Assembly (NCBI GenBank): GCA_030550295.1
Contig: JAUQPQ010000003.1
Span: 1-56,525 of the forward strand
DNA length: 56,525 nucleotides
DNA from: Chloroflexota bacterium
GTDB taxonomy: Bacteria; Chloroflexota; Dehalococcoidia; SM23-28-2; HRBIN24
Direction of reading: 5' to 3'
Under the pieces are notes generated by a model. That model did not search any database, was not told where the DNA came from, and was given only the letters and a program-made list of their open reading frames with translations. Of the stretch, positions 22,602 to 29,346 are shown one piece after another. A program made the translations under genes and the position numbers. Every line of letters begins with the position of its first letter. Position 1 is the first letter of the stretch.

Positions 22602-23222
22602 TTATTGCTGCCGCCCCACTGCCTGGGAGTATAGCTCCTCCATATCGTCATAAGTGAGGGCGCCGTTATGGACGGCCACCACGATTCCGTTGGCGTTCAG
22701 GAACAGGCTCAGGGGCATTCCTATGCCGTGGTAGGCGGGAAAGAGCGTATCGTCAGGGTCGGCTAAGGCTACTGTAAAGGGGGAGGTGTTCTCAGTGGGC
22801 AGCGCCAACTTTTCGAGAAACCTCCTTGCCCGCTCGGCCGGCTCGGCCCGGTTGATGCCGATGACTATCAGGTCAGGATGGGCTTGGCGGAGGCGGTAAA
22901 TATCAACGAGTTCCCGGGCACACGGCTCGCACCAGCTAGCCCAAAAGTTGAGAAGGACGGGCCTGCCACGAAATTCGGCGAGGGTTACCCTTTTTGTTCC
23001 GTCTAGGGTGGAGGCCTCGAAATTGGGGGCCACTTCTCCTTGCCCGGGCCCCACCTTCAGGGTGGGCGCGCCCTCTGGCAGTGGGGTGAACAACAGCTTA
23101 GCGTTCCTAATCCCCTGCTGGGTGCCCAAATATCCGCTCACTTGCAATAGGCCTAGGACGCCCATTACTAGTGCCATTATCCCCATTATGGCTGCTAGGC
23201 GTCTCAGCATCCCTGAAGGCAT
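22602..23222 (-). CDS. TlpA/ResA-like membrane-anchored thioredoxin
   Basis: N-terminal TM, APNF, LLNFWASWCEPC, GMP; start could be ATG 23210. Confidence 0.85.
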   Translation of the reverse strand: MPSGMLRRLAAIMGIMALVMGVLGLLQVSGYLGTQQGIRNAKLLFTPLPEGAPTLKVGPGQGEVAPNFEASTLDGTKRVTLAEFRGRPVLLNFWASWCEPCARELVDIYRLRQAHPDLIVIGINRAEPAERARRFLEKLALPTENTSPFTVALADPDDTLFPAYHGIGMPLSLFLNANGIVVAVHNGALTYDDMEELYSQAVGRQQ

Positions 23223-23225
23223 GGG

Positions 23226-23981
23226 CTACAACGTGGGCGTTAGTTTGGAAAAAGGCCCCCAGTCAAATAAGCTGTTGAGGTTGATGAGACTATTAGTAAA
23301 GATGAGCACTCCTACCACTACCAAAGTGGCCCCGCTCACATAATTTATCACAGGGGAGATGAGCCTAAGCCACCTATATAGGGGCAGAAGGGCATTAAAG
23401 GCTAGGCCCAGGAGTAGGAAGGGGATGGCTAGCCCCGCTGAGTAGGCCCCTAAGAGGACTGCTGCCTGCGCTACGTTAGCGCCGGATACGGCCAGGGCCA
23501 GGATGGCCCCTAGGGTAGGTCCAATACATGGGCTCCAGCCAGCGGCAAAGGAGCAGCCTACTAGAAAGGAACGTAAGTAGCCCGTTCCACCCTCTATTCC
23601 CAGCCGTTGCTCCCTTTCCAAAAAGGGAATGGTGATAACTCCAGCAAGGTGTAGCCCCAAGGCGATGAGCAAGGAGCCGGCCACCTTCTGCACTATGTCT
23701 TGGTGCTCACGCAAAAAAAAGCCGATTATCCCTAAAGATACCCCAAGGGAGACAAAGACGACGGAGAAGCCAAAGGTAAAACTGAGGGAGTGTAGGAAGG
23801 GGGCATACGCCCTTGCCTTTATCTCTGTGGGGGAGCCATGCTTTCCCCCGGTGATTGGGGTAGTGGAGGTACCAGTAAGGTAAGTCAGATAAGGTGGCAC
23901 AAGAGGTAAGAGGCATGGGGAGAGAAAGGAGAAAAGCCCTGCACCCAGCGCCACTAGCAAACTTATGCCTCCCACTTCCAA
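23226..23981 (-). CDS. ccdA: CcdA (DsbD transmembrane domain) electron transporter
   Basis: SFLSPCLLPLVP and WSPCIGPTLG; TTG 23981 follows SD GGAGG and overlaps the end of the upstream gene. Confidence 0.88.
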   Translation of the reverse strand: MEVGGISLLVALGAGLFSFLSPCLLPLVPPYLTYLTGTSTTPITGGKHGSPTEIKARAYAPFLHSLSFTFGFSVVFVSLGVSLGIIGFFLREHQDIVQKVAGSLLIALGLHLAGVITIPFLEREQRLGIEGGTGYLRSFLVGCSFAAGWSPCIGPTLGAILALAVSGANVAQAAVLLGAYSAGLAIPFLLLGLAFNALLPLYRWLRLISPVINYVSGATLVVVGVLIFTNSLINLNSLFDWGPFSKLTPTL

Positions 23982-26194
23982 TCTGGGATACCTCCTGCCG
24001 GCCAAATTGGCAGCTTTTTAACCAGAAGGTCTACTCGGTTTCCCCAGCGGCGCAGAAAGCGGTAGAAATTTCGTTTGCTTAACCGGTCGCGCTCGTGGGG
24101 GTCTAACCTTTCCCATTCCCAGTGGGTAGATCGGTAAGCAGGAATATCAGGGCAGCATACTGTGCGCCACCCCAGTGCCCTTACCCTGAAGGACAAGTCA
24201 AGGTCTAGGTGACGGTAGAAGCGGAATTTTTCGTCCAAGGGTGTTACTTGCTGGATGACCATCCTTGGTATGAGCATGAGATAACCTTGGAGGGCGTCCA
24301 CGTCGCAGTCCAGTTCTACCTCATAGAAGTGGCGAAGGTCGGCGGTGTAAAGGCCCCAACGGCCCATAATCCCTAGGGTTGGATCTTGGGAGAGGCGTTC
24401 CAGATAGGGTTCCAGGGGCCCAGTGAGCCTTACTGAGCTGTCCAACCACAGGAACCAGCGGCCCTTGGCTTGTCGAAGGGTCACGTTGCGGGCCATAGCC
24501 TCTCCCAGGAAGTGGTCGGCACGGAGCACCCGTACTCGAGGGTCGGTGGCGGCTAGATGTTCCAAGAAGGATACCGTCTCGTCAGTGGAGCCGTTGTCCA
24601 CCAATATGATCTCGTCGTCTTCCCTTAGCCAGGGCAAGAGGCTATCTATGCAAGGCTGGAGGTGAGGCAAGTTGTCCCGGGCCAATAGGCTCACCGTTAT
24701 GCGCTTTTGGGGTGGCTCGTGAAGAAGGGAGGGGACATCGGTGCTACGTGATATGGTGGGGAATTCTTCTTTCCACTTGGGTCTAAGAAGTATGCGAGAG
24801 GTGCGGCGCCCATCGCGCACTTCGTAGCCCCTACCCTCGATTTGGGCCCTTAGGGCGTCTGCATCGGCATATCGGCGCTGACATCGCAAACGGTCTCGAG
24901 CCCTAGCCAGAGAGGCGATATCGGCAGGAAGCTCTACTTTCTCGGGGGGACGGTCCAGGGCCAGCCCTAGCACCGAGTCAAATTCCAGTAAAAGCCTTCT
25001 TTTGGTGGAGCTGGGGAGGCTGGAGCGTGCCACCTCCCAGGCGACGGCCAATGCCCTTGGGAGGGACAGGTCATAACACACTGCCTCCCAAAACATCTTT
25101 CGGAGCTTCTCCGCTTTATCAGGGTCAGGTCGGCCCCTGCTACCAGTTTGGGTATGGAGCTGTAACCTGGAAAGGGCGCGCTGGGAGGCCCGCAGGGCCT
25201 CCCAGGTGAAGTTCATGGGATGCCTGTAGTGGACGGTGGCGCACAGGTAACGGAAGGCTAAGGGATGGAAGCCGCGGGCTTCCAGGTCGGACAGGGTGTA
25301 GACGTTGCCTGTGGACTTGGCCATCTTTAGCCCGTCGACTAAAAGGTGGGCCCCGTGAACCCAATACCGAGCGAAGGGGCTGTCGTAGGCGGCCTCGCTC
25401 TGGGCTATCTCGTCCTCATGGTGAGGGAAGATATTGTCCACTCCTCCGGTGTGGATGTCCAGGTGGGGCCCTAAGTAACGTATTGCCATGGCAGAGCACT
25501 CGATGTGCCAACCGGGGAAGCCATAGCCCCAGGGGCTGAGCCACTTGAGGAGGCGGCCTGGTTCGGCTGCCTTCCATAGGGCAAAGTCCCTAGGGTCTTC
25601 CTTTAGCGGATCGACATCGGAGCGGACTCCTGCTAAAAGCTCTGGGCCTGTCTGCCCAGAAAGCCTTCCGTAGGTGGGGAAGGCGGATACGCGAAAATAG
25701 ACGTTCCCACTGCGCTCATAGGCGTACCCTTTCTCTAGTAGCCGTTCCACCAGCCTTATCATCTCTTCCACGTGTTCTGTGGCCTTAGGATAGTAGTGGG
25801 CAGATAAGATATTGAGACGCCTTTCGTCGCGTAAGAAGGCCTCGGTGTAGAAGTGGGCGATCTCCTGTGGGGTCTTACCCTCGGCGAGGGCGGCAGCGAT
25901 AACCTTGTCATCGCCCCTTTCTAGCTGCTCTTGACGCATGTGTCCTACATCTGTGATGTTCTTGACGTGGATCACCTCGTATCCCAGGGATTCAAGCACC
26001 CTGCGCAGCCAGTCCACCATGAGATATGTGCGCAAGTTGCCGATGTGCGCATACCTGTATACAGTTGGCCCGCACGAATATAGGCGGACGCGCCCTGGTT
26101 CTAAGGGGGTAAAAGGCTCGATACGCCTGGTCAGGGTGTTGAACAGATGGAGAGATGGGGCCGGGACCCGGCCCTCAGGTGATCTCTCAACCGT
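23963..26194 (-). CDS. cysS: Cysteinyl-tRNA synthetase fused to a C-terminal GT2 glycosyltransferase domain
   Basis: The frame stays open upstream of the track start (LHLFNTLTRRIEPF, YSCGPTVY, HIGN). Also NITDV, DFALWK, GWHIECSAM, FPHHEDE, KMAKS, ADALR; then VDNGSTD, ARNVTLRQAKGRWFLWLD, DLDLSFR. No ATG/GTG/TTG upstream of the conserved N-terminus; ACG 26194 proposed as start. Confidence 0.85.
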   Translation of the reverse strand, partial: TVERSPEGRVPAPSLHLFNTLTRRIEPFTPLEPGRVRLYSCGPTVYRYAHIGNLRTYLMVDWLRRVLESLGYEVIHVKNITDVGHMRQEQLERGDDKVIAAALAEGKTPQEIAHFYTEAFLRDERRLNILSAHYYPKATEHVEEMIRLVERLLEKGYAYERSGNVYFRVSAFPTYGRLSGQTGPELLAGVRSDVDPLKEDPRDFALWKAAEPGRLLKWLSPWGYGFPGWHIECSAMAIRYLGPHLDIHTGGVDNIFPHHEDEIAQSEAAYDSPFARYWVHGAHLLVDGLKMAKSTGNVYTLSDLEARGFHPLAFRYLCATVHYRHPMNFTWEALRASQRALSRLQLHTQTGSRGRPDPDKAEKLRKMFWEAVCYDLSLPRALAVAWEVARSSLPSSTKRRLLLEFDSVLGLALDRPPEKVELPADIASLARARDRLRCQRRYADADALRAQIEGRGYEVRDGRRTSRILLRPKWKEEFPTISRSTDVPSLLHEPPQKRITVSLLARDNLPHLQPCIDSLLPWLREDDEIILVDNGSTDETVSFLEHLAATDPRVRVLRADHFLGEAMARNVTLRQAKGRWFLWLDSSVRLTGPLEPYLERLSQDPTLGIMGRWGLYTADLRHFYEVELDCDVDALQGYLMLIPRMVIQQVTPLDEKFRFYRHLDLDLSFRVRALGWRTVCCPDIPAYRSTHWEWERLDPHERDRLSKRNFYRFLRRWGNRVDLLVKKLPIWPAGGIPDWKWEA
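26152..26186 (-). promoter_or_regulatory. Candidate bacterial SECIS element
   Basis: Minus strand GAGATcacctgaGGGCCG-GGTCC-CGGCCCcATCTC directly after UGA; apical loop starts with GGU 18 nt downstream of UGA. Confidence 0.6.
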
Positions 26195-26399
26195 GTTCTC
26201 CCTCCCAGCCTATCTCCACTTCGTCTTCGCCCCAAATGATGATGGGGACAGTAACTGAGTACTGAAGCGCCTCTTCCCACCACTGGGTCTTTCGGTCAAC
26301 CGCCCTCTCCTCTACTTCAAAGCCCCTTGCCCGTAGGTCGGCCACCGCTTTCTGGCTGACGGGGCAGCTAGTAAGTGTATAGACTATAACTTTGCTCAT
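26175..26399 (-). CDS. Glutaredoxin-like probable selenoprotein (CxxS plus C-terminal Sec)
   Basis: VIVYTLTSCPVS, TVPII, EIGWEGEHG-TGA(26189-26187)-GAG-ATC-ACC-TGA; hairpin downstream of the first TGA. Confidence 0.7.
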
Positions 26400-26450
26400 G
26401 GTGCCACCTACCCCTAATGATATCCCGCGTGGTAGGCCGTGTCAGCACGC

Positions 26451-27833
26451 CTACACCCGTATAAGCTTCCAATGTCCCCCTCGGAACCGAAGCCACATGA
26501 GAAAGGCCCTTGTGCTTATGTCTATTACCGCCCCTATCCATGCGCCCGGTGCTCCCAGGCCAGCCTTTATGGCCAGCAGATAAGCCGGCCCTAGCCGTAC
26601 TATCCACGTCCCGAAGGCGGTGATAACCATCACTGAACCAGTATCGCCGGCTCCTCTGAGGCCGCCGCTGAAGGCCAAGTTAGCCCCTAACGCGGGCATG
26701 GCGAAACCGAAAATGAACATGAGCCTACGCCCTAGCTCTACTACCTCTTCGGCCCCCTCACCCGCCACGAAAAGAGATGTTATAGGCCCGCCGAAGAGCA
26801 TAAGGAGGAGCCCCACCGCCCCCATAACGGCTGAGGCGTAAAGGGCAGCCGAATAGACGGCCCTCTCAGCAAAGCGAGGCCTCTTTGCTCCCAGTCCCTG
26901 GCCTACCAGGGCGGCGGAGGCTACACTTATGCCAAAGCCGGCGTTAAAGGCGAGGCTCTGTATTGCCAACGCTACTCCATGGGCAGCAACGGCTGTGGTG
27001 CCTAGCGAGGCCACGATTCTGGTATAAAGCATGAAGGCCAAGTTAAATTGGGCCTGTTCCAGGGCAGTTGGCGCCCCTATACCCAAGATTCGCCACATCT
27101 CGCCTAAATGGGGTTTGGCCTTGGGTGACCACCTGAGCACCAGCCTGCGAGAGGCCAACAAGGCCAATATTAAGACTGCCCCAAGCGAGGCGGCGATAGT
27201 AAATCCTGCCCCAGACCCTACTACCTCGAGGCGTGGGAAGGGACCAGGGCCGTTTATGAGGGCATACGCCATGACGGCATTGATCACGTTCACCAATACC
27301 CCTATCGCCATGGGGGTACGCGTGTCTCCAGCCCCTTGAAGGACGGAGTTGGCTGAGGAGAGCACCGACCAGAAAGGCATGCCAAAGGCTGCCGCCTGCA
27401 GATACTGGGTGCCCAGGCGGCGTGCCTCTGCCTCGGCCCCTAGCATGCCTAAGGCCCAGCGGCTGAAGAACCAAAGGCTTACCATCAGTGCTGCCCCCCA
27501 TACCGATGCCATAGCTAAGGCAGCAGCTACTGCCCTTTCGGCCCTTGTCTGATCTTTGGCCCCCACGCTTCGGGCCACCACAGCGATAGCTCCAACCCCT
27601 ATGGCGTTTATGCCCCCAAAGGCAAACCAGAAGATCTGGGCCCCAAGGCGTAGACCTGCTAAAGCATCCTCCCCTAGATGCCCGACTAAAAAGGTGTCCA
27701 CCAGTTGGACCATGGAATAGCTCACTTGCTGCACCATTACGGGCCAGGCCAGCCGGAACACTGTTCGCCCCAGGCGGGTCTCATCTAGGGCAGCTATAGG
27801 CAGGGCCCTACTCCTGGACGCCGATTCCGTCAT
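26451..27833 (-). CDS. MATE-family efflux transporter/flippase
   Basis: LAWPVM, VDTFLVGHLG, LQGAGDTRTPM, LRGAGDT; about 12 TM. Confidence 0.9.
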   Translation of the reverse strand: MTESASRSRALPIAALDETRLGRTVFRLAWPVMVQQVSYSMVQLVDTFLVGHLGEDALAGLRLGAQIFWFAFGGINAIGVGAIAVVARSVGAKDQTRAERAVAAALAMASVWGAALMVSLWFFSRWALGMLGAEAEARRLGTQYLQAAAFGMPFWSVLSSANSVLQGAGDTRTPMAIGVLVNVINAVMAYALINGPGPFPRLEVVGSGAGFTIAASLGAVLILALLASRRLVLRWSPKAKPHLGEMWRILGIGAPTALEQAQFNLAFMLYTRIVASLGTTAVAAHGVALAIQSLAFNAGFGISVASAALVGQGLGAKRPRFAERAVYSAALYASAVMGAVGLLLMLFGGPITSLFVAGEGAEEVVELGRRLMFIFGFAMPALGANLAFSGGLRGAGDTGSVMVITAFGTWIVRLGPAYLLAIKAGLGAPGAWIGAVIDISTRAFLMWLRFRGGHWKLIRV

Positions 27834-27895
27834 CTCTCTACACACAGTAGGGTATGATGATGGTGGGCCTCAAACTAGAGATAGAGCAAGGAGTC

Positions 27896-28522
27896 ATGGA
27901 GGGCCACAAGTGTTTCGCTGCTATCTATGACTTTCTGATGGCTCGGGCAGAGAAGACTTTCATGCGGGCCATTAGGTCAGAGGTAGTAGGGAAGGCCAGG
28001 GGGCGCACGTTAGAGATCGGTTGCGGGACTGGGGCAAGCTTCCCCTATTATCCCGATCCCTCCGCCGTCACTGCTACCGAGCCTGACCCCTTTATGTTGC
28101 AGCGGGCCCGCCGGCGGGCCCGTCTAATGGGTATCCCTTTGACTATCATCAGGGCCCGTGCCGAGCTCCTCCCCTTCCCAGACTCCTCCTTTGATACGGT
28201 GATCAGCGTTTTCGTTTTCTGCAGCGTGCAAGATGTGCGCCGCTCTTTGGCTGAGGTGCGCCGTGTCCTGAGGTCTCATGGGGAGCTACGGTTTTACGAG
28301 CACGTGCGCTACGACCACCGATGGGGCGCCCTGGCCCAAGACGCTGTCACGCCCTTGTGGCAATGGCTAGGGGGAGGGTGCCATCCTAATCGGGACACGC
28401 CACGCCTGCTTGAGGAGGCAGGTTTTAGGATAGTCCGCTTGGAGGTCTTCAAGCTCGATCCGCCTGTGCCGCCGCTACTTTTTATACGGCCCCAGGTCTT
28501 AGGGGTGGCCCGTCCAGTTTAG
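27896..28522 (+). CDS. Class I SAM-dependent methyltransferase
   Basis: LEIGCGTG, LPFPDSSFD, FCSV, EHV, GGCHPNRDT; SD AAGGAG. Confidence 0.88.
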   Translation: MEGHKCFAAIYDFLMARAEKTFMRAIRSEVVGKARGRTLEIGCGTGASFPYYPDPSAVTATEPDPFMLQRARRRARLMGIPLTIIRARAELLPFPDSSFDTVISVFVFCSVQDVRRSLAEVRRVLRSHGELRFYEHVRYDHRWGALAQDAVTPLWQWLGGGCHPNRDTPRLLEEAGFRIVRLEVFKLDPPVPPLLFIRPQVLGVARPV

Positions 28523-28524
28523 CT

Positions 28525-29346
28525 ATGGGCGGTCTTGTTTTGGTGCTAGGGGCAGGGGGGATCCGCGGCTGGGCCCATGTGGGGGTGCTCAAAGTTCTCC
28601 ACCAGGCCCAGCTGCCCATTCAGGCCATAGTAGGGGCTAGCGCAGGATCCCTCATAGGTGCCCTCTATGCTGCCCACCGTGATGTCGGCCTAATGCTGGA
28701 GGTGGCCTCTTCGGCCAACGTGGCCTCTCTGACGACCTGGTTTCTGGGTGGACTGAAGATAGGGCCTGATGCACCGGGGTTTGGGCGACGCCTTTGGCAG
28801 GCCTACGGCCATCTAGACTTCGGGGAGATGGCCATCGCCTTTAGGGCGGCTGCCCTTGATGTGGCTACAGGCGAGCGGGTGCTCATAGGCTCTGGCAACG
28901 TAGGAAGGGCAGTGGAGGCAAGCATACGCCCGCCTGGGCTCTTGCCCCCTGTGCTTATAGGGGGAAGGCCCCTTGTGGACGGTGGCCTGCACGATACTGT
29001 CCCCACCGCTCTAGCTATAGCTGCCTTTCCCCAACTGACAACGGTAGCGGTGCCGGTGGGTGAGTTCATAGTGTTGCCCAAGGCATTACAGCCTATCTCC
29101 CGGCAGGCGTCCCGCGTGATATGGGGCCTTGGTGTGGATCCTCGATCTCGCATAGGGGGGCTGGCCTTCATGGCCCATCTGTTAAGCCAAGGGAGGCCTC
29201 AGAGGCTACCCCCTCAGGCCTACATCGTCCCTCGACTGCGGGGCATCATGGCCATCCTTCCCTTCCGCATAGAAGAGGCCATCCGGCGCGGTGAGAAGGC
29301 AGCTAGGGCCGCCCTACCTTACCTGCGCCAGCTCTTCCAGGGCTAG
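28525..29346 (+). CDS. Patatin-like phospholipase
   Basis: GAGGIRG, GASAG, DGG motifs. Confidence 0.88.
   Translation: MGGLVLVLGAGGIRGWAHVGVLKVLHQAQLPIQAIVGASAGSLIGALYAAHRDVGLMLEVASSANVASLTTWFLGGLKIGPDAPGFGRRLWQAYGHLDFGEMAIAFRAAALDVATGERVLIGSGNVGRAVEASIRPPGLLPPVLIGGRPLVDGGLHDTVPTALAIAAFPQLTTVAVPVGEFIVLPKALQPISRQASRVIWGLGVDPRSRIGGLAFMAHLLSQGRPQRLPPQAYIVPRLRGIMAILPFRIEEAIRRGEKAARAALPYLRQLFQG

Follow-up and report, generated by a model that had tools for sequence, protein, structure and literature searches.

Transfer of a sugar or an amino acid to an anticodon-loop nucleoside of a specific tRNA has precedents in QTGAL, QTMAN and GluQRS. GluQRS is an aminoacyl-tRNA synthetase (aaRS) paralogue that puts an amino acid onto such a nucleoside, B3GNTL1 belongs to glycosyltransferase family GT2, and tRNA-Cys (anticodon GCA) is not known to be one of the queuosine tRNAs. 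QTGAL (B3GNTL1) and QTMAN are given, in part of a published account, as glycosyltransferases of tRNA queuosine (PMC11755703). These precedents are eukaryotic or act on queuosine, and none is known to have a fused aaRS anticodon-binding domain. It is rare, to our knowledge, for an enzyme domain to be joined for good to the part of a protein that reads the anticodon of a single tRNA. A further point of reference is MshC, the cysteine-activating paralogue of cysteinyl-tRNA synthetase (CysRS) of mycothiol (MSH) systems, which is not known to have an anticodon-binding domain. Here we describe a CysRS fused to a GT2 domain (CysRS–GT2) that is encoded in the window, by which we mean the whole 56,525-nucleotide stretch analysed, contig C62 of a 1.58-Mb Chloroflexota genome (95.7% complete).

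The fusion gene is the third of five on the minus strand (22602–27845), which in reading order encode a MATE-family transporter, a glutaredoxin-like (Grx) protein with selenocysteine (Sec), the fusion, CcdA and TlpA. A preliminary description of the sequence had proposed that these co-directional, tightly spaced genes form one thiol/selenium system. Their orientation stands, as does the spacing, from the intergenic distances read from the sequence; of the link between thiols and selenium, the Sec-containing Grx and the cysteine-activating enzyme are retained, but the five genes as one unit are not. The main new result is a glycosyltransferase family that appears to be tied to a tRNA-Cys-reading domain, with or without a synthetase core.

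The synthetase half of the fusion

The fusion and its domains are located as follows.

23963..26146, minus strand: CysRS–GT2 fusion, 727 amino acids (aa) counted from CTG 26146, stop TAA at 23963–23965 (PF01406 334.9 bits, PF00535 67.9 bits)
24776..24928, minus strand: predicted CysRS anticodon-binding domain within the fusion, about residues 407–457 (PF23493 18.1 bits, under the cut-off of 23)
24011..24709, minus strand: GT2 (GT-A fold) domain of the fusion (PF00535 67.9 bits and AlphaFold2 model)

The CysRS model TIGR00435 matches the fusion with 420 bits (cut-off 340) along positions 1–459 of its 466, and the best 120 homologues of the fusion, 671–752 aa long and labelled Chloroflexota or Dehalococcoidia by their sources, all carry both PF01406 and PF00535. 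The HIGN and KMAKS motifs are invariant in 40 fusions, together with C25, C217, H242 and E246, which we take to be the zinc ligands from their alignment to the numbering of Escherichia coli CysRS. The anticodon-binding region aligns with the C-terminus of canonical CysRS and its residues R421, A429, D430, R433 and R444 are invariant in the same 40 sequences; the PF23493 score of the fusion itself lies below the cut-off, and many homologues carry PF23493 in precomputed annotation.

A canonical CysRS of 459 aa is encoded on contig C19 of the same genome and is 39% identical to the fusion over 472 columns, a full-length alignment that includes the C-terminal anticodon-binding domain. The two have in common a HIGH-type motif (HIGN in the fusion), KMAKS, the four zinc ligands and, by alignment, the anticodon-binding domain, whereas the fusion is an extra copy, with a C-terminal GT2 part of about 270 residues and an 11-residue insertion (GHMRQEQLERG) after NITDV, and in the window's clade it lacks a canonical start codon. 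Among 60 relatives, each fusion-bearing genome also has a CysRS of about 460–500 aa, and in many a third paralogue, about 400 aa long, is present; among 400 genomes of the phylum, those with the fusion have 2–3 PF01406 matches, the exceptions being G251 (76% complete) and G039 (57%). From these counts and from the invariant residues, we take the fusion to be a CysRS that comes in addition to the canonical one, is apparently active and reads tRNA.

The nearest unfused relatives, 38–49% identical, are CysRS of Clostridia, Actinomycetota, Patescibacteria and others. When genome contigs were searched with the whole fusion, the WHIECSAM pattern drew in ordinary CysRS from many phyla and clear fusions were found only at loci L054, L055 and L081, with L063 matching residues 1–637 at 38%. 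A search for longer proteins returned only generic giant proteins with multiple glycosyltransferase domains and no triple fusion, which is weak evidence.

Three side observations concern these CysRS genes. The canonical cysS on C19 adjoins a hexapeptide-repeat open reading frame (ORF) which by eye resembles serine acetyltransferase. The third CysRS-family gene, seen in many genomes of the same order (G408–G458, for example G421:C4:67669-68568, at the start of L148) and absent from the window's genome, is an open frame of about 395–460 aa that covers model positions 3–291, an MshC-like length. At G454:C1:1046084-1048435 a Grx-adjacent fusion looks degraded, with a TGA within the GT2 match and a TAG within the CysRS match.

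The glycosyltransferase domain

The GT2 domain scores 67.9 bits against PF00535, for which the gathering cut-off is 23.3, and its AlphaFold2 model is a complete GT-A fold (pLDDT 90.6, pTM 0.88). The best structural match of the model is ppGalNAc-T2 (Z 21.0, root-mean-square deviation 3.0 Å, 227 residues) and other GT2 enzymes follow at Z 17.5–19.3; sequence matches to solved structures are generic. The motifs VVDNGS, ADHxLG, LD(S/T)S and RFYRHLDLD can be recognised, and 19 positions are invariant in 38 sequences that are 38–64% identical. In these 38 sequences H217 and H219 are nearly invariant or invariant, and E117 is conserved in at least 90%.

Short forms with an anticodon-binding domain and GT2

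A search of the phylum with the GT2 domain returned two classes of frame, about 48 of at least 700 aa and about 44 of 256–560 aa (a hand count of 95 rows with E ≤ 1.5e-28). The short forms start exactly at the anticodon-binding domain. Of the 11 retrieved, seven have an N-terminal PF23493 match: two pass the cut-off of 23 (L237 with 28.2 bits, L240 with 32.0 bits), four stay under it at 20.7–22.8 bits (L238, L239, L241 and L243), and the seventh match is in a 424-aa ORF of L241, at residues 124–157. The N-termini of L234 and L236 align to residues 406–456 of the window's fusion (tblastn), and the short forms of L235, L242 and L244 gave no anticodon-domain match by Pfam or tblastn.

In the protein database, 377 proteins of at most 398 aa are related to residues 395–727 of the fusion (E ≤ 1e-10). 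PF23493 is found in 53 of the 120 short relatives listed out of these 377, nearly all with PF00535, and the typical short form has 300–330 aa and spans 84–95% of the query region. Some short forms are whole genes, as they are located on contigs of 51–186 kb; many other sequences come from contigs of 1–3 kb. Residues R23, R27, A35, D36, G46 and D51 (numbered by alignment A4) are invariant in the fusion, 13 short forms and canonical CysRS. The ESM Atlas has a cluster whose automatically assigned architecture name combines an anticodon domain with GT2 (110 members, PF23493 in 84%, Chloroflexota) and a second one of this architecture (73 members, PF23493 in 60%, most commonly Actinomycetota), next to fusion clusters of 61–216 members. 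Where the short form occurs without the fusion (G009, G341, G160), the genome encodes an unfused CysRS, 54–58% identical to the window's synthetase half, and in G333 a split CysRS copy lies 1.3 kb from the short form. The AlphaFold2 model of residues 395–727 has a pLDDT of 90.9 and a pTM of 0.79.

Because the GT2 family is fused either to a whole CysRS or to the anticodon-binding domain alone, its transferase would be expected to act on tRNA-Cys, and the fusion family, as judged from these architectures, most likely works on this tRNA. CysRS–GT2 is a large, unstudied family: its clusters number in the hundreds in Chloroflexota, Actinomycetota have some too, and its members are currently named plain "cysteine--tRNA ligase" or "glycosyltransferase". 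A search of the literature outside subscription journals found no relevant publication on a CysRS-linked glycosyltransferase, including for Chloroflexi. If the family does act on tRNA-Cys, it would stand for tRNA glycosylation in bacteria or for a tRNA-scaffolded route to a cysteine–sugar metabolite, and the second of these would bear on the protective thiol of organisms without glutathione (GSH), MSH and bacillithiol (BSH).

In one family (L234–L239, from G209, G329, G225, G233, G030 and G138) the short gene lies in a conserved row, after genes for a ManC-like nucleotidyl transferase and then a gamma-glutamyltranspeptidase (three of the six) and before that for oligoendopeptidase F. The predicted functions hint at a GDP-mannose donor and at gamma-glutamyl or cysteine metabolism.

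Conservation of the neighbourhood

Upstream of the fusion in the window lie the following features.

26451..27845, minus strand: MATE-family transporter, 464 aa from GTG 27845, alternative ATG 27833 (PF01554 197 bits; TIGR00797 262.1 bits, cut-off 147.4)
26175..26399, minus strand: Grx-like selenoprotein, 74 aa (PF00462 29.7 bits; NF041212 46.7 bits, cut-off 66)
26150..26188, minus strand: stem-loop resembling a selenocysteine insertion sequence (SECIS), from folding and a hairpin criterion across TGA-bearing sequences

The MATE stop and the Grx start are 51 nt apart, and 28 nt separate the second Grx stop (26175) from the conserved CysRS N-terminus (26146). Further on, the CcdA start candidates 24005, 23981 and 23975 overlap the 3' end of the fusion, and TlpA starts 3 nt after the CcdA stop.

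Conservation was followed in 20 loci of the same order, five from the same family and 15 others. Grx lies directly upstream of the fusion in all 20, with MATE upstream of Grx in 18. Among 80 metagenome loci, which were collected using a Grx alignment, the CysRS begins +44 to +115 nt after Grx in 71, and two are too short downstream. Grx is also found upstream of the fusion in the distant loci L054 and L081, where the flanks differ and CopCD is upstream. In 60 relatives Grx occurs in 49 and the GT2 of the fusion in 40, all 40 having Grx, and 11 have neither; as relatives are not independent, this co-occurrence is descriptive only. MATE, Grx and CysRS–GT2 stay together only within one order of Chloroflexota.

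Possible modes of action

We give about even odds to a reading in which the cluster consists of two units that lie side by side and do not form a single pathway, the first of them (unit A) being centred on a transferase acting on tRNA-Cys. Unit A would consist of Grx(Sec) and CysRS–GT2, with MATE upstream. The fusion would be a second CysRS, catalytically intact by its sequence, in which the anticodon-binding domain is followed by a GT-A glycosyltransferase. The transferase would thus be held on tRNA-Cys, and could place a sugar either onto a nucleoside of the tRNA or onto the cysteine that it carries, with the synthetase half supplying Cys-tRNA-Cys in cis. The cargo is favoured by the strict conservation of the active site beside a canonical CysRS, which suggests that charging in cis matters; a target in the anticodon arm is favoured by the position of GT2 directly behind the anticodon reader. 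Put in full, the proposal is a tentative one: CysRS–GT2 and the short forms would be tRNA-Cys-dependent glycosyltransferases, with cysteine glycosylated on the tRNA and released as a cysteine–sugar thiol, or with a nucleoside of the anticodon arm glycosylated, and expression in the window's clade would depend on Sec decoding. Where cysteine is the target, S51-type hydrolases might carry out the release step where they are present.

Free-standing Peptidase_S51 genes occur beside the fusion at three loci: directly downstream on the same strand at L045:8107-8964 (G385) and L053:7017-7793 (G174), and divergently upstream at L046:7003-7590 (G344, an unpublished genome). These three genes gave no PF23493 match at E ≤ 1, and tblastn found no S51 gene in the window's genome. 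We treat the link between S51 hydrolases and the fusion as a lead only.

Several observations weigh against a transferase working on tRNA-Cys. The acceptor is not readable from the fold, since the ppGalNAc-transferases stand only about 2–3 Z units above many GT2 enzymes, and the arrangement of the two domains in the model of residues 395–727 is moderately confident (pTM 0.79, linker pLDDT 66). The site of the DxD motif reads D-(S/T)-S, with D113 invariant and then S/T-S, not x-D. Most short forms are without the first Asp of VVDNGS and without the ADH motif, which weakens the case for a common catalytic mechanism; to judge by these residues, the binding of a nucleotide sugar may differ between the short forms and the fusion. 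The single tRNA-Cys gene is 87–97% identical in relatives with and without the fusion and is uninformative. Where the metagenome sequence continues for 200 nt or more past Grx, 7/78 loci lack the fusion there (L176, L187, L197, L203, L213, L226 and L228), and nine of the 60 relatives have Grx without the fusion, with G456 and G459 at contig ends; Grx is therefore a frequent neighbour of the fusion, not a dedicated partner. Elsewhere in the phylum, at 20 loci of other classes (one of them from the unpublished genome G344), tblastn and a Grx hidden Markov model (HMM) found no MATE, Grx, CcdA or TlpA near the fusion, and the neighbours recognised there by Pfam are unrelated housekeeping genes, with two cases each of queuine tRNA-ribosyltransferase (TGT), YqeY and EF-G and one each of DnaN and a class II aaRS.

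These housekeeping neighbourhoods bear also on a different reading, in which the fusion is a second CysRS for housekeeping or times of stress, its GT2-like domain is non-catalytic or regulatory, for example a sensor of nucleotide sugars, and the neighbours are there by descent. The TIGR00435 score above cut-off, the CysRS genes that are its nearest unfused relatives at 38–49% identity, the degenerate DxD and the missing first Asp of most short forms all agree with it. It is harder to square with the GT2 domain itself, which has kept 19 invariant positions in 38 sequences at 38–64% identity and is modelled as a complete GT-A fold, and free-standing proteins of anticodon domain plus GT2 are difficult to explain as the appendage of a synthetase. 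We consider this second-synthetase reading rather unlikely.

The two TGT genes, at L048:11626-12942 and L052:6153-7580, are divergent from the fusion beside them and belong to two genomes of one genus.

A Grx-like selenoprotein upstream of the fusion

Selenoproteins of the UXX-star families (NF041212, NF041114, NF041211) have a Grx fold of about 70 aa, Sec a few residues before the stop and a SECIS beyond it. In the part of a review that lists them, these families appear without a function beyond possible metal binding (PMC13188914). The Grx of the window has these features, and NF041212 ('Uxx-star') is its best NCBIfam match, at 46.7 bits under the cut-off of 66; its Sec, though, is four residues from the end (U-x-x-x-stop), not three (U-x-x-stop).

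The ORF has 70 aa up to the first TGA, at 26187–26189, which is followed by GAG ATC ACC TGA; with readthrough to the true stop at 26175–26177 the product has 74 aa and ends G-U-E-I-T-stop. The active-site Cys is C12 in CPVS, C-x-x-S or C-x-x-C being usual among orthologues. At 22 related genome loci the codon at the Sec position is TGA 19 times and a Cys codon (TGC or TGT) three times (L142, L145, L081), with the three codons after it and the stop conserved; the 80 metagenome loci have TGA in 77, TGT in two and TTA in one. Two of the Cys-form genes with TGT, L203 and L206, read E-I-T and then W-G without a stop, so that the ORF continues, and MATE and the fusion are not nearby.

A GC-rich hairpin begins 15–17 nt downstream of the UGA. 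In the window it has an inner stem GGGCCGG/CCGGCCC at 26158–26174, a GUC loop and an outer stem GAGAGA/UCUCUC. By a strict criterion (an unbroken stem of at least 5 bp and a loop of 3–7 nt that contains GU and starts 18–29 nt past the UGA) 45 out of 76 distinct sequences with TGA have the hairpin, whereas 4.6% of shuffles and 0/5 sequences without TGA do. The hairpins that pass have 30 distinct stem arms, which is covariation, and the 31 sequences that fail mostly have a bulged hairpin or a loop without U. For the window hairpin alone the single-sequence fold z-score is −1.56, which is weak by itself, and no Rfam family was significant in the region around it. The genome has complete Sec machinery (tRNA-Sec, SelA, SelB and SelD).

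From the alternation of Sec with Cys, the conserved E-I-T-stop, the co-varying hairpin and this complete machinery, the Grx-like gene is identified by sequence comparison as a true selenoprotein, as the preliminary description had anticipated when it marked the gene as Sec-containing. It adds a U-x-x-x-stop variant to the UXX-star families. The redox pair is probably formed by C12 and U71.

The SelD gene (G000:C60:4487-5416; 366 bits, cut-off 125) has an in-frame TGA, and SelD is thus likely itself a selenoprotein.

The missing start codon of the fusion

The frame of the fusion is open from a TAG at 26210–26212, and there is no ATG, GTG or TTG upstream of HIGN; the TTG listed at 26035 falls inside the catalytic domain. 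The same lack of a canonical start is seen in 7/94 loci (the window, L135, L136, L138, L154, L157 and L160), all of which belong to the clade whose 44-nt spacer is taken up by the hairpin. In sister loci the loop of the hairpin reads GTG, against GTC in the window. The database gene call for a near-identical protein (P0001) begins at an internal Met.

An assembly error as the cause was rejected, the lack recurring in these 7/94 loci from different genomes and metagenomes. A programmed +1 frameshift joining Grx to CysRS was likewise rejected: the frame offset to Grx is not constant among loci, which makes a frameshift fusion unlikely, and at most loci the CysRS frame has an ATG or GTG of its own.

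The sequence suggests a start by the near-cognate CTG at 26146 or by reinitiation coupled to the Grx ORF. With no normal start codon, and with a start inside or just after the SECIS hairpin, translation of the fusion in the window's clade is probably coupled to reading of the Grx ORF. The fusion may in that case be a gene that needs Sec decoding upstream for its own translation.

CcdA and TlpA

The last two genes of the row are as follows.

23226..24005, minus strand: CcdA (DsbD_TM), likelier start TTG 23981 after GGAGG (PF02683 40.1 bits, cut-off 27.1)
22602..23222, minus strand: membrane-anchored TlpA/ResA-like thioredoxin with WCEPC (PF00578 54.8 bits, PF08534 54.5 bits)

CcdA has two SPC motifs (LSPCLLP and WSPCIGP) and is the only PF02683 (DsbD_TM) match of the genome. 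TlpA has an N-terminal anchor and matches the Redoxin and AhpC-TSA families; against the equivalog models it scores 69 bits for ResA (NF002854, cut-off 170) and 49.7 for TlpA (cut-off 230). On contig C5 three successive genes encode a CcsA-type protein, a ResA-like thioredoxin (PF00578, 112 bits) and ResB (ccsA-resA-ccsB). The CXXCH motif occurs in 12 ORFs of the genome, none of which has two.

The pair is directly downstream of the fusion in four of the five same-family loci (L134, L135, L136 and L138). Among the 15 other loci of the order, L139 is the only comparable case, with CcdA directly after the fusion and then, beyond an intervening stretch of about 1.1 kb, TlpA; in L148 the pair has remained beside the thiolase gene, 5 kb from the fusion, and from the remaining 14 same-order loci they are absent. 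The only metagenome loci with CcdA/TlpA directly after the fusion are L154–L163 and L199, close relatives. The five-gene order, which the preliminary description had itself named as the point to check, is thus not conserved across the same-order, metagenome and other-class loci, and the idea of one five-gene system fails, since CcdA-TlpA stand beside the fusion only in the window's family and L139.

As they are not kept beside the fusion, and as this is the sole CcdA of a genome with ccsA-resA-ccsB elsewhere, CcdA and TlpA are a separate unit and ordinary neighbours of the fusion. This unit B would be the general route by which reducing power is exported, its most likely client being the system II cytochrome c maturation encoded on C5; the simplest reading, by analogy with system II, would have CcdA feed both the ccs/res genes of C5 and TlpA. 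The likeness to CcdA and ResA/TlpA of system II lies in the DsbD_TM core with two SPC motifs and the membrane-anchored CxxC thioredoxin, and the differences in that the window pair is not adjacent to ccs genes and that its TlpA/ResA scores fall well short of the equivalog cut-offs. Among the 49 further ORFs of the window Pfam recognised no cytochrome c or ccs/ccm gene, in agreement with what the preliminary description had said of the adjacent genes.

The same distribution speaks to the idea that the whole row serves to make and export an envelope product that is cysteinylated or glycosylated, with MATE as flippase and CcdA/TlpA keeping its thiol reduced outside the cell. The tight co-directional genes of the window and four of the five same-family loci would suit such a role, as would a weak MurJ match of the MATE protein (26.0 bits, cut-off 27.4). 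The MATE protein, however, falls in the curated efflux family TIGR00797, passing its cut-off (262.1 against 147.4 bits), CcdA/TlpA are not adjacent in 14/20 same-order loci nor in metagenome loci beyond close relatives, the sole CcdA belongs to a genome that has ccsA-resA-ccsB elsewhere, and the fusion is not known to have a transmembrane region or a lipid-carrier feature. An envelope product made by the whole row is in our view very improbable.

Thiol pathways and the comparison with MshC

Like MshC, the fusion is a cysteine-activating CysRS paralogue, and it is found in a genome without another known thiol pathway; it differs from MshC in keeping its anticodon-binding domain and in having no MshA/MshB context. 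Its score against TIGR03447 (MshC) is 222.7 bits with a cut-off of 485.1, and the genome's canonical CysRS scores higher (302.6). The fusion does not qualify as an MshC, because its catalytic and zinc residues are invariant and the anticodon-binding domain is kept, and the mycothiol analogy drawn in the preliminary description is not supported.

The search for msh, bsh and gsh genes that had been suggested as a check found no recognisable gene for GSH, MSH or BSH in the genome. No MshA or MshC above cut-off was found (the best MshA match being 110.2 against 462.5 bits; no MshD search was made), and neither were GCS2, GSH synthetase or BshC in this 95.7%-complete genome, PF04262-type GshA lying outside the search. 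The only PIG-L gene is on contig C7 among unrelated genes, and the cluster has no deacetylase.

A version of the mycothiol idea can be stated in which tRNA has no part: the CysRS half would ligate cysteine to an amino-sugar made by GT2, giving a cytosolic cysteinyl-sugar thiol for Grx(Sec) to recycle and perhaps for MATE to export. The intact cysteine-activating site, a glycosyltransferase in the same polypeptide, the lack of GCS2, GSH synthetase, BshC and of MshA/MshC above cut-off, and the presence of Grx directly before the fusion in 20/20 same-order loci all fit such an enzyme. It is unlikely nonetheless, given the TIGR03447 score of 222.7 against 485.1, below even that of the canonical CysRS, the retained and invariant anticodon-binding domain, the lack of a deacetylase in a cluster whose genome has its sole PIG-L on C7, and the GT2 proteins that keep the anticodon-binding domain even without a catalytic core.

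Under the tRNA-Cys reading, a new cysteine–sugar thiol made on the tRNA is possible, as no GSH, MSH or BSH genes were found. If that reading is true, the low-molecular-weight thiol so far missing in these Chloroflexota could be a cysteine–sugar compound. Among the papers listed outside subscription journals, mostly on mercury and other metals, none concerns a Chloroflexota thiol by title or abstract.

Other features of the window

A possible promoter lies in the gap between MATE and Grx.

26417..26445, minus strand: sigma-70-like promoter match, CTGACA-17-TATCAT (10/12 positions)

The match is a lead only, since two such sites occur in the region where 2.2 are expected by chance. The 49 other ORFs of the window belong by Pfam to acyl-CoA metabolism, pyrimidine synthesis, recA and similar functions. 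Divergent from MATE, a methyltransferase gene and a patatin-like gene (27854–29346) are conserved alongside the cluster, both in the family of the window and in some of its order.

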